NCBI RefSeq assembly: GCF_006345805.1
Contig: NW_021824863.1
Location: 1-17,367 of the forward strand
Length of the DNA stretch: 17,367 nt
Source: Octopus sinensis
Taxonomy: Eukaryota
Reading direction: 5' to 3'
Both the position numbers and the translations under genes were made by a program. A model generated the notes under the pieces. That model did no database searches. It was not told where the DNA came from and saw nothing but the letters and a program-made list of their open reading frames with translations. Positions 4,776-14,968 of the stretch are shown piece after piece. How positions within the stretch are numbered: the first letter of the stretch is position 1; each line of letters begins with the position of its first letter.

Positions 4776-4815
4776 TATATATATATATATATATATATAT
4801 TTATTATATAGAAGG

Positions 4816-4866
4816 AGCTTCTACAGGACTAGAACTGTTTCATTCAAAAGAAATCATCAGGAAGCT
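4816..4866 (-). ncRNA. Type I hammerhead ribozyme, family B, mirror copy
   Basis: Minus strand AGCTTC-CTGATGA-TTTCTTTTGAAT-GAA-ACAG-TTCTAGTC-CTGT-A-GAAGCT. Confidence 0.8.
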
Positions 4867-5092
4867 AGTGACAAGAGTTGTTTTGGCATTTATACATTTA
4901 GGCAGGTTTAAAGAGGTGGTGGTGGGGGACTTTTTTGGGGGGTAGGCATGGTGCAAAACTATCATTATTAGGGGAGTGGTCACTCCCCTAATAATGATAG
5001 TTTTGCACCATGCCTACCCCCAAAAAGTCCCCCCCCCACCACCCCTTTAAACCTGCCTAAATGTATAAATGCCAAAACAACTCTTGTCAACT

Positions 5093-5143
5093 AGCTTCCT
5101 GATGATTTCTCTTGAATGAAACAGTTCTAGTCCTGTAGAAGCT
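5093..5143 (+). ncRNA. Type I hammerhead ribozyme, family B, intact core
   Basis: AGCTTC-CTGATGA-T-TTC-TCTT-GAA-T-GAA-ACAG-TTCTAGTC-CTGT-A^-GAAGCT. Stem I 6 bp, stem III 4 bp, short stem II. Predicted cleavage after A5137 (GUA). Confidence 0.8.
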
Positions 5144-5224
5144 CCTTCTATATAATAAATTAATTTACTCTGCTATGTATTGAGTACCTTATTTACTGTG
5201 GTTAACCCCGACTCAACCGGGACC

Positions 5225-6674: not shown

Positions 6675-7660
6675 GGTGGAATGTACCAGTGAAGACCTCA
6701 ATAAAATGTAAGCACAACAGACCTGATATAATGATCTGGGATATAGTAGAGAAACGGTACACAATTATGGCAATTAGTTGCTCAGCGGATGTTAATATAA
6801 AGCTGAAGATCAGTGAAAAAGAGAATACCTACTCTGAACTATTGAGAAATCTGCAGTTACTCTATTCAGATTACAGGTTCAGGTTTATATCTGTAATTAT
6901 TGGGCCCTGGAATATGTAACACACTGCCTAAATACGAATCTTGAGAAATTAGGCTTCTCAAAACCAGAAAGGAGAAAGCTAATTCGAAGACTACAGATCC
7001 AGTCCATCACTGGAACTGTAAAAATCTGTAAAACTTTCCAGATGTTTACCATTTCAATATATATGAGCATGTCTAGATACGTAACTTTATGCATGAGAAT
7101 ACATACATACATACATACATACATACATACATACATACATACATACATACATACATACATACGTACGTACATACATACATACATACATACATACATACAT
7201 GCATGCACACATACATACATACATACATACATACATACCTACATACATACATACATACATACATACATGCATGCACACATACATACATACATACATACAT
7301 GCATGCACACATACATACATACATACATACATACATACATACGTACATACATACATACATACGTACATACATACATACATACATACACACATACATACAT
7401 GCATGCACACATACATACATACATACATACATACATACATACACACATACATACATGCATGCACACATACATACAACATACATACATACATACATACATA
7501 CATACATACATACATACATACATACATACATACGTACGTACGTACATACATAAAAAATACCCTGTTGTTGATGTTGAAATTCCAGTGAAGGAGCCTTGAA
7601 TCTAGGTTAGAAACCAGCTCTTTCTCTATTGGGAAGAAATCTTGAAATAAAACTGAACAA
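6675..7660 (+). mobile_element. 5'-truncated RLE-type non-LTR retrotransposon (R4/Dong-like), endonuclease-domain pseudogene plus 3' UTR
   Basis: WNVPVKTSIKCKHNRPDIMIWD..AISCSADVNIKLKISEKENTYSEL..SVIIG/ALEYV..LEKLGF matches the PD-(D/E)xK RLE pattern, with a frameshift near 6905. 3' UTR carries (TACA)n. Confidence 0.85.
7099..7551. repeat. (TACA)n microsatellite inside the LINE 3' UTR
   Basis: Direct inspection. Confidence 0.95.
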
Positions 7661-9300: not shown

Positions 9301-9511
9301 ACTCTTTTACTTATTTCAGTCGTTTGACTGCGGCCATGCTGGAGCACCACCTTTAGTCGAGCAAATCGACCTAGCTTGGTACTTATTCTAAGATTTGTAA
9401 GCTTAGTACTTATTCTATCGGTATCTTTTGCCAAACCGCTAAGTGACGGAGACGTAAACACACCACTATCGGTTGCCAAGCGATGTTGGGGGGACAAACA
9501 CAGACACACAG

Positions 9512-9551
<40 letters not shown>

Positions 9552-9737
9552 CACACACACACACATACATATATACGACAGACTTCTTTCAGTTTCTCTG
9601 TCTACCAAATCCACTCACAAAGCTTTGGTCGGCCCGAGGCTATAATAGAAGACACTTGCCCAAGGTGCCACGCAGCGGGACTGAACTCGGAACCATGTGG
9701 TTGGTAAGCAACCTACTTACCACACAGCCACTCCTGC
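9301..9737 (-). mobile_element. Full-length tRNA/CORE-type SINE with internal (CA)n
   Basis: Minus strand: GTGGCTGTGTGGTAAG (A box), GAGTTCAGTCCC (B box), CORE-like ACCTTGGGCAAGTGTCTT. Possible TSD CTGCCCT at 9294-9300 and 9734-9740. Confidence 0.88.
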
Positions 9738-9865
9738 CCTGTTCGAGTATCTTTATAACGAAAGGCCTTTCAGCTGAAACCAAAGTACCTATATCTCTAT
9801 CAAAACCCTTGGAACCAGACATGTTTTGGAATTCGGATATTTTTGGTTTTGGAATCGGTTGTACA

Positions 9866-10032
9866 GTACAGTTCTATATTTAAGAGATGAGGAATTATGT
9901 ACATTATTTACATTTGACGGATATTTGCCCTCATCTTGTTTGTTGTCAACATTTCGGCTGATATATCCCCCAGCCTTCATCAGGTGTCCTGGGGAAATTT
10001 CGAACCTGGGTTCTCATTCCTAATACTAATAT

Positions 10033-10106
<74 letters not shown>

Positions 10107-10290
10107 ATAATAATAATAACAATAATAACATCACAAAATACCTTAGGAATGAGAACCCAGATTCGAAATTTCTCCAAGACACCTTATGAAGTGCTAGAGG
10201 GTATATCAGCCGAAACGTTGTGTTAGCAACAAACAAGATGAGGACAAATATCCGTCAATTGTAAATACTGTAAATAATGTAAATAATGTA
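9866..10290. mobile_element. Second family A fold-back element lacking tRNA heads, with 10-bp TSD and one-sided tail
   Basis: About 9899-10023 is inverted relative to about 10143-10290 around a (CTA)n/(AAT)n spacer. TSD CGGTTGTACA at 9856-9865 and 10291-10300. Tail 9866-9898 is on the left arm only. HHR motifs at 9948-9988 (-) and 10178-10224 (+). Confidence 0.88.
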
Positions 10291-10867
10291 CGGTTGTACA
10301 ATATATTCGTAGGGTATATCCTCGATTACAAGTCGTGATTCCCAGGAATAATTTAGGTTGAATCTCTGTCCACCAACTTCGGAAACAAAATTCTTATTTC
10401 TATATATTTTCTATGGCTGGTTGAACTTAAGTTTTGAACCTCTAAGGATACCGGTACAGTGTGCTGATAGGCCTTGCCTAGTAGGGTATATGAGTATTTT
10501 TCTCAAATTATAATCATGAGTCAGATTAACATAATCACTGGTTAGATTAAGAGAATGTATTTACACATCAAAGAAGACACGTAGATATTAAATGCCTTAC
10601 CAGTGTTACATGAATACTGTTTAGCGTAAGTATTACAGAGTATTGTTCATTTGTGGTACGAATACTCTCAAACCGAACAGAATAAAGACATTTTAAATAC
10701 TATGGAGACTTCGAATAATAATAAAGTTTATTCATATTGTAATAAACTGATAAATGAATCGAGATAAAGACAAGTCATAAAATTACGAGGGTATTTATTG
10801 TTATTATTATTATTGTTGTGATTTTAGTTTTGATCAGGTAATTTTGATTGTCTCCATTGCTGTTATT

Positions 10868-11234: not shown

Positions 11235-11677
11235 GGATCTTTTCGGTTTGAACGGCAGTTTTTAACATAATTTCTAGGTAACTAAAAAATTTTAAACTTC
11301 GTATGCTGGTAGAATGTGTTTATAAAACATCTTTTTCTCTTGGCTTTATTGAGAAAATTCTATAGTTTGTAAGATATTTGTTGTTTTTTCTTCTTCAATT
11401 TCTGCAATTTCAACCAATCAGTGACGTCTATTGAGTTGAAAAGCATTCTGTGCCGTATGAATATGTCCCTCGTTTAAGAAACAGATTGGGTTTATTTACA
11501 TTTGTGAAGAAAAAAAGATACCCTTCCCCCCATCCCTAACTCTAACTCTAACCCTAACCCTAACCCTATCCCTAATTAACCCTAAAAGAGATTGAAATGC
11601 ATAATAGGGTCATAATTATGGGTGACAATTTCATATGACACCGCTAGAAAAAACTGCCGTTCAAACCGAAAAGATCC
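11235..11677. mobile_element. MITE / non-autonomous DNA transposon (Merlin-like by termini)
   Basis: Perfect 29-bp TIRs GGATCTTTTCGGTTTGAACGGCAGTTTTT (11235-11263, 11649-11677). 8-bp TSD GATTACTG/GATTACAG (11227-11234, 11678-11685). Confidence 0.9.
11534..11585. repeat. Interstitial telomeric-type (CCCTAA)n repeat inside the MITE
   Basis: CCCTAACTCTAACTCTAACCCTAACCCTAACCCTATCCCTAATTAACCCTAA. Confidence 0.85.
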
Positions 11678-12946: not shown

Positions 12947-13100
12947 CAGTTTTATTTCAAGATTTCTTGCCAATAAAGATCCGGTTTCTAACCTAGATCC
13001 AAGGCTCCTTCAATTTGAATTTCAACATAAACAACAGGGTAATTTTGTTATGTATGTATGTATGTATGTATGTATGTATGTATTGTATGTATGTATGTAT
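12947..13100 (-). mobile_element. 3' UTR-only copy of the R4/Dong-like LINE
   Basis: Reverse complement matches 7552-7656 and is preceded by (TACA)n. Confidence 0.8.
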
Positions 13101-13477
13101 GTGTGTGTGTGTGTGTGTGTATGTGTGTGTGTGTGTGTGTGTGCAAATTTTATGTATGTATTCTCCTTTTCTGGTTTTGAAAGACACATACACATTTAAG
13201 ACGGTAGGATGTAATTTGAGTAAGAATCGACTACTATGTCTGACACGTCGGGCGACAAGTAGAGGATCCATCGTTTACTGGATTTTCAGTCGTAGACAAC
13301 TACCAGACGTTTAATACATTTAGTAAAGGCATGAACGCCCTTACAGCATCACGTAGAAAGTCTTTCATGGGTATTTTTATTGTTGTTGTTTAGCCTCTGC
13401 TCAGCTCAGCCCCTGTCAGTCAACCCTGTGATCAAATGTGTTCCAGTGTGGCCATCCCACCGTATTCTTGTCTGTTA

Positions 13478-14269: not shown

Positions 14270-14968
14270 GAAATAAGAAATAAGAACGCACAGAATGGTA
14301 GAAGCCACGGCAACTCATAATAAAAAGGAATACTGGTGGAATGTACCGGTGAAGACCTCTATAAAATGTAAGCATAACAGACCGGATATAATGATTAGGG
14401 ATTGAGAAGAGAAACTGGGCACAGCCGTGGAAATTAGCTGCTCAGCGGATATTAACGTAAAGCTGAAGATTAGTGAAAAAGAGAATATCTATGCTGGTCT
14501 ACTGAGAAATCTGCAGTTACTCTATCCAGATTACAAGTTCAGGTTTATACCTGTAAATATTGAGCCCTGGGATATGTAACACACTGCCTAAATACCAATC
14601 TTGAGAAATTAGGCTTCTCAAAACCAGTAAGGGGGAAAACTAATTCGAAGACTACACATTCAATTCATCACTGGAACTGTAAAGATCTGTAAAACTTTCC
14701 AGAAGTTTATCATTTAAATATATATTGGCATGTCTAGACATGCAACTATATGCATGAGAATACATGCATAAAACATACAAATCTGCACATACATACATAC
14801 AATCATACATACATACATACATACAGACAGACAGACAGACAGTCATATATGAATACATACATACAAAAATACCCTGTTGATGTTGAAATTCCAATGAAGG
14901 TGCTTTGGATCTAGGTTAGAAACCGGCTCTTTCTGTACTGACGAGAAATTTTGAATTTTAACTGAGTA
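14270..14968 (+). mobile_element. Second 5'-truncated R4/Dong-like LINE fragment (RLE pseudogene plus 3' UTR)
   Basis: Colinear with 6675-7660 (EYWWNVPVKTSIKCKHNRPDIMIRD*EEKLGTAVEISCSAD..). Shorter TACA tract. Confidence 0.85.

Follow-up and report, generated by a model that had tools for sequence, protein, structure and literature searches.

The evidence supports the view that the insertion at 9856-10300 of the window (the whole 17,367-nt stretch of DNA that was analyzed) is a 5′-truncated stump of a Penelope-like element (PLE) of about 2.6 kb, with two 3′ ends placed head to head. It is probably a single 5′-truncated insertion of an endonuclease-bearing PLE that is likely to belong to the Penelope/Poseidon type; two priming events, one on either side of a staggered cut, are its likely origin. 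Taken singly the copy is ordinary. The family to which it belongs, family A, is useful as data on the inverted repeats of PLEs, whose origin, like that of their one-sided tail, is called undefined in PMC8557442 (in part).

Anatomy of the insertion

The insertion is flanked by the direct repeat CGGTTGTACA, at 9856-9865 on the left and at 10291-10300 on the right (both plus strand). The call is made from the sequence and, for the left copy, also from the family-wide duplication test given below. With both strands searched, CGGTTGTACA occurs in the window at these two places and nowhere else. The first-pass annotation had described a perfect 10-bp target-site duplication, and such a duplication is present; since the first C also matches the element's own next base, its length is 9 or 10 bp.

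Two inverted arms lie within the duplication. The left, tailed arm (9867-10023, minus strand) is the 3′ part of the pLTR, 5′-truncated just before the microsatellite, and diverges by 7.0% from the family majority. Its outermost stretch (9867-9899, minus strand) is the 33-nt PLE tail, whose outer end corresponds to the distal (D) end in the family. Opposite it, the untailed right arm (10130-10290, plus strand; 4.8% divergence) ends at the proximal (P) end, AATAATGTA, the motif at which the copy at 1-558 also stops. Both the tail of about 33 bp on one arm only and the shared stopping point had been noticed from the letters, and both hold. Between the two arms runs a (CTA)n then (TAA)n microsatellite (10020-10128, plus strand), the part of the element between head and arm; counted with it, the untailed arm extends further 5′ than the tailed arm. 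The arms meet at CTAA/TAA where the (CTA)n(TAA)n tract begins, and the inversion junction (10020-10023) is a 3-4 nt microhomology (CTAA) of the tailed arm with the other arm's microsatellite. Thus the arms are indeed truncated at different points and fused through the microsatellite, as had been claimed.

Each arm contains a decayed minimal hammerhead motif, and both fail a descriptor of the minimal form drawn up after PMC4209133 (in part). In the tailed arm (9943-9988, minus strand) the core is kept, a helix III base is changed and the 3′ strand of helix I is partly deleted. In the untailed arm (10178-10224, plus strand) the core CTGA has become CTTA and helix II is disturbed. The copy is old, with both motifs broken, and likely does nothing now. 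The outer part of the untailed arm (10260-10290, plus strand) is an array of 3.4 copies of the 9-mer TGTAAATAA; the two arms disagree in the number of these units and at site 126.

The copy was said to be complete, which is right insofar as both of its ends are present, but what they enclose is a stump of the 2.6-kb element. It was also said to have no tRNA head, and it has none, unlike the copy at 1-558, which has one tRNA-like head in each orientation. We infer that the copy at 9856-10300 never had a head, a later deletion being the alternative. The headed insertion (1-559) is the second of family A in the window and is cut by the contig start, since the window is the whole of a small contig. 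Its whole form is found on contig C8 (L247), with a tailed left arm and an 11-bp duplication. Positions 1-1798 of the window match C8 (L277, 81.68 Mb) at 96% over 1.8 kb and at 100% in the arm, and no other part of the window ranks with the longest matches to the 20-kb portion of C8 used in the comparison. The match is either a segmental duplication or an assembly overlap.

The autonomous element

Two of the first 29 sister copies continue into coding sequence, and in other genomic copies an RT ORF with a C-terminal GIY-YIG-type motif lies directly upstream of the same arm. A search with the ORF peptide gave 150 scored matches out of 2,323 candidates. In nearly all of 20 loci, which were selected for long frames, the end of the ORF is followed by the stop codon, the tRNA-like segment, the microsatellite and the arm, in this order, and the ORF C-terminus reads VYSIPCSC..LYKGET..R..EH..ADH. 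Every ORF copy seen is broken. The one at L075, near full-length at about 2.6 kb, has stops and frameshifts; at this locus the tailed arm is long, the inverted untailed arm is short, and the insertion has a duplication of its own, of 12 bp. This copy (L075:3003-5634) has three matches of 100% identity over the 66-aa query, on the small contigs C8464, C9459 and C9724, which possibly represent duplicated assembly.

The domains differ in how they were recognized. RVT_1 scored above cut-off in two of four frames scanned (L167 and L173; E 3e-10), five partial frames gave nothing in Pfam at E 0.01, and a PDB search returned RT matches only, which were weak. A search for protein homologues gave four proteins with PF00078, PF28514 or PF26215. 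Pfam gave no GIY-YIG match on the endonuclease frames, and this domain is assigned by its motifs: two cysteines between the GIY-like and YIG-like halves, and a conserved R, EH and H. The RT-endonuclease linker has isolated cysteines only and no CX2-5CxxC zinc finger. Because the linker has no zinc finger and two cysteines lie inside the GIY-YIG motif, the element is likely of the Penelope/Poseidon type, a motif-based assignment by the rule in PMC8557442 (in part). By the motifs stated in that part, an element with a C-terminal endonuclease and a linker devoid of a zinc finger is not Naiad, Neptune or Nematis. The arm is thus the 3′ repeat of an ORF for RT and a GIY-YIG-type endonuclease, which bears out the proposal that the insertion moved as a PLE rather than as a DNA transposon.

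The 33-nt tail continues into the ORF in four loci (L030, L185, L075 and L176), and in L030 and L185 the arm, the 9-mer and the tail are in one frame with the ORF N-terminus. For this reason the arm can be identified as the pLTR and the tail as the start of the ORF body. The TGTAAATAA unit is accordingly an in-frame repeat of three residues, variable in number, in the N-terminal part of the ORF. A 9-mer repeat at the untailed end had been counted among the signatures of integration. The repeat is present, but the array does not mark integration, since tailed arms vary in it too, 36 of 87 having extra units and 6 having fewer. At the untailed end the 9-mer is often repeated, with runs of 21 nt or more in 49 of 96 arms. 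This made telomerase-like repeat addition there attractive, but it was rejected as an end-specific signature, as the tailed arms vary too and the unit is in frame. Since 20 of 45 untailed arms go beyond what their partner would template, slippage occurs somewhere.

The family arm is predicted to hold a minimal hammerhead motif. The majority sequence and 39 of 123 arms pass our own min-HHR descriptor, which none of 2000 shuffles passed; Rfam gave no hammerhead match. In pLTRs, min-HHRs are described as pairs 100-700 bp apart on opposite strands (PMC4209133, in part).

The 3′ region of the family further contains a segment with A-box and B-box-like motifs, which aligns to genomic tRNAs with no clear parent. 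Compared with 27 tRNA genes of 6 amino acids, this head aligned best to Arg-TCT (z of 7.8), followed by Ala (7.3) and Cys (7.1). Rfam gave no tRNA match to the head, and ARAGORN made no call at default settings and gave implausible folds only at relaxed ones. Free 5′ ends cluster at the start of the head, 27 of 43 falling in a 15-nt window where about 6 are expected; the simplest reading of the clustering is possibly a Pol III start at the head. The head lies inside the 3′ region of the autonomous element itself, some 30 nt past the stop codon, and is absent from both arms in 8 of 41 pairs. That the family might be a separate tRNA-derived SINE was rejected, the head being part of the autonomous partner.

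Regularities of the family

The family was tabulated as 119 inverted pairs with both 3′ ends, most loci having been chosen by similarity and not randomly. The 3′ ends form two peaks, at arm positions of about 137-147 and 167-172. One tailed arm is combined with one untailed arm in 106 of the 119 pairs; within the position-ordered set the figure is 41 of 45. If the ends were independent, the expectation would be about 50% (p about 1e-21 for the 116 pairs with both ends classed). The 13 exceptions comprise 7 pairs with no tail at either end, of which one is truncated by the contig start, 3 with a tail at both and 3 unclear.

Before duplications, variants and junctions were counted, L075, L008 and L172 were dropped for internal, nested or broken ends; L208, a duplicate of L207, was left out of some family counts. 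A flanking direct repeat (score of at least 8) is found in 79 of 103 tailed/untailed pairs vs. 6 of 309 pairs of shuffled flanks, which served as the control. The first-pass annotation attributed the inverted pair to a single retrotransposition event, and the one duplication around both arms, in the copy at 9856-10300 as in these 79 sister pairs, agrees with it. Of the 79 duplications, 48 measure 11-13 bp, lengths that are inflated by matches to the element ends; perfect duplications are of 9-17 bp (41 cases). The targets have 23% GC. Six insertions lie in other repeats with empty paralogues. In five of these a single copy of the duplicated sequence is found, and the sixth stands at 10 against 13.

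Among 70 junctions resolved by BLAST, whose ends make the overlaps approximate, an overlap of 1-5 nt is seen in 35 and a longer one in 4; a gap is present in 27, and the remaining 4 are blunt. A second set, also of 70 pairs, comprises those without a microsatellite-hidden end, 33 hidden-end pairs being excluded. Here 67 of the 70 junction positions are distinct, and the longer arm is the untailed one in 33 pairs and the tailed one in 26, with 11 equal. Pair lengths range from 157 to 1915 bp (41 pairs), and single-arm copies are common in the family. Two loci, L009 and L310, have the same symmetric TAACC junction and the same variants at arm positions 125-126. They may hint at copying of a ready-made inverted unit or at one source locus.

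The two arms of an insertion share non-CpG variants 2.8 times as often as shuffled pairs do, above all 1000 permutations, the shared sites numbering 40 in 9,540. At site 126, the partner has T in 10 of 13 cases when the tailed arm has T, vs. 7 of 81. This suggests that both arms usually have a common source, which may be a single RNA bound by a dimer of the protein. The sharing could also reflect one source locus or gene conversion between arms. A common source need not be one RNA molecule, because the copy at 9856-10300 is discordant at site 126, 76 of 103 pairs are without any shared non-CpG variant, and conversion is possible.

How the inverted pair may form

Within one duplication, then, each side has its own fixed 3′ end, and the two ends are separated by 33 nt of the element. 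In the double-priming scheme that we prefer, the RT-endonuclease would cut the two target strands at positions offset by about 10-12 nt, so that 3′ overhangs remain. One 3′ end would prime cDNA at the distal start site and the other at the proximal. Both cDNAs would extend toward the 5′ end of the RNA and stop at unrelated points. They would then join via a few complementary bases, which would be CTAA in the copy at 9856-10300, and fill-in would generate the target duplication.

The activities of PAc, a Poseidon protein of Anolis carolinensis, bear on the scheme. In vitro it cleaves both strands and extends them, with RT beginning at two sites that lie on either side of the tail, and it is predicted to form a dimer; no strand difference in start-site use was found, which counts against double priming (PMC11167929, in part). 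If one RNA were held by a dimer, the tail would correspond to the distance from one start site to the other. A fuller version would have a dimer with one RNA make two cDNAs at once, one from each target end, at sites 33 nt apart, so that an inverted insertion always has exactly one tail, and would add a tRNA-derived Pol III promoter in the pLTR making the short RNAs behind most copies. This version is tentative and, as we judge it, somewhat more likely to be wrong than right.

A different origin is by fold-back, in which one cDNA (or an antisense RNA; PMC3846280, in part) snaps back at a palindrome and copies itself. The arms do share variants, and symmetry to within 5 nt is seen in 11 of 70 pairs, in some of them at TAACC/GGTTA or at a TGCCC-AC-GGGCA hairpin, as self-priming would have it. 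However, copying a tailed cDNA can give nothing beyond the 5′ limit of the template, and copying an untailed one can add no tail. Yet in 33 of 70 pairs, as in the copy at 9856-10300, the untailed arm exceeds the tailed arm in length, and in 27 pairs it begins at the head, with the stopping point of the partner varying between ORF position 274 and arm position 121. The counts (one tail in 106 of 119, either arm longer, shared variants) favor double priming, and we regard fold-back as unlikely.

An inverted pair might also be moved ready-made, via an RNA read through an older inverted copy. The common junction and variants of L009 and L310 are what such a route would leave, and the junction 17-mer of the copy at 9856-10300 occurs 34 times in the genome, a count of the exact 17-mer alone. 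But 34 is small vs. the 3,759 exact genomic matches of the core 29-mer and fits a recurring TAA microhomology; the 67 distinct junction positions also speak against the route, and the precise proximal end is left unexplained by it. We therefore think this origin improbable.

Still less credit is due to two independent insertions, to an insertion followed by local inversion, or to a headed pair whose middle was deleted later. The arms do differ, the middle is a slippage-prone microsatellite, and the 8 of 41 pairs headless in both arms might be so explained. Against this, one duplication surrounds both arms and the one-tail rule is family-wide, and a later deletion would alter the junction only and leave the origin unchanged.

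Finally, that the insertion is a MITE or another non-autonomous DNA transposon with terminal inverted repeats is suggested by the flanking duplication and by the long arms that lie inverted close to either end, and is next to impossible given the variable duplications and the continuity of the arm with an RT ORF, which refute it, and the asymmetric ends (106 of 119), variable lengths and many single-arm copies. The family behaves as a retrotransposon and not as a MITE. When duplication lengths, tails and inversion points were tabulated across copies, as the first-pass annotation had proposed, the fixed length and symmetric termini of a MITE were not seen. In repeat annotation, such stumps can readily be mistaken for MITEs or SINEs.

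Relation to known elements

In the twin priming of L1, two primers give rise to an inversion joined by microhomology. There each of the pieces derives from another part of the RNA, whereas in family A both arms are the same 3′ end. The SM-alpha element of Schistosoma is a tRNA-headed hammerhead repeat. It and Helenus/Ajax (PMC10886601, in part) have a small-RNA-derived promoter inside the terminal repeat of a retroelement, as family A may have; Helenus/Ajax are LTR elements, unlike family A.

The inverted 5′ copy, the one-sided tail of 30-40 bp, the duplication of 8-10 bp and the pLTR hammerhead are already published. The anatomy of Naiad, Neptune, Nematis and Penelope elements includes 5′ truncation, an inverted 5′ copy and a tail of 30-40 bp, often at one end (PMC8557442, in part). 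Pen2a_Av and related EN+ Penelope elements of Adineta vaga are similar to family A in their inverted 5′ pLTR and the tail on one pLTR. In Pen2a_Av the tail is of 31 bp and the duplications are of 8-10 bp, and the pLTR and tail encode the ORF's first residues (PMC3846280, in part). As Pen2a_Av is described in that part, family A is unlike it in that its pLTR has a tRNA-like segment and a microsatellite and is present in tens of thousands of copies. It also departs from the self-priming model put forward there, since most family A junctions are non-palindromic, which argues against that model.

PAc is like the family A protein in having an RT with a C-terminal GIY-YIG and in AT-rich targets. Its pLTR hammerhead likewise overlaps the ORF start, and the tail lies between two RT start sites. 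As far as the available part of PMC11167929 goes, family A differs in its tRNA-like head and in the counted use of one start site per side. In a literature search outside most subscription journals and Repbase, no tRNA-headed PLE and no counted one-tail rule were found. One PLE protein only has been reconstituted so far (PMC11167929, in part), and the family counts yield predictions for the existing PAc assay.

Abundance and age

Abundance was sampled in 80 evenly spaced 10-kb stretches (799,700 bases), which contained 8 clusters in 7 loci. If the sample is representative, the family has about 25,000 insertions genome-wide. The family arms stand about 5% from the majority.

The filled right junction of the copy at 9856-10300 was found in contigs of four runs (X1, X3, X4 and X5), labelled as four organisms, and the filled left junction in X1 and X4; the flanks in those runs differ by up to 3%. 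No empty allele of the locus was seen in the four runs. As filled junctions occur in runs labelled as four organisms, the insertion is older than those splits. No genomic paralogue of the left flank was found, and the right flank has four weak ones.

Other repeats in the window

Just left of the insertion (9600-9737 and 9400-9450) is a very abundant short repeat, whose summed contig depth is far above that of family A; it is likely a common SINE. A near-perfect palindrome of 370 bp (4792-5167; 95%) belongs to a different family and has a TA-repeat on its left. Hammerhead-like cores of the form CTGATGA...GAAAC point outward from it at 4860 (minus strand) and 5099 (plus strand), and it looks like another PLE stump with a symmetric center. 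Two copies of a repeat of about 530 bp with a (TACA)n end, 86% identical, lie at 6675-7199 and 14335-14865, with a shorter inverted relative at 12947-13165. An element of about 440 bp (11235-11677) is bounded by terminal inverted repeats that match perfectly over 29 bp and has a (CCCTAA)7 tract inside; it has the look of a true MITE and offers a useful contrast to family A.
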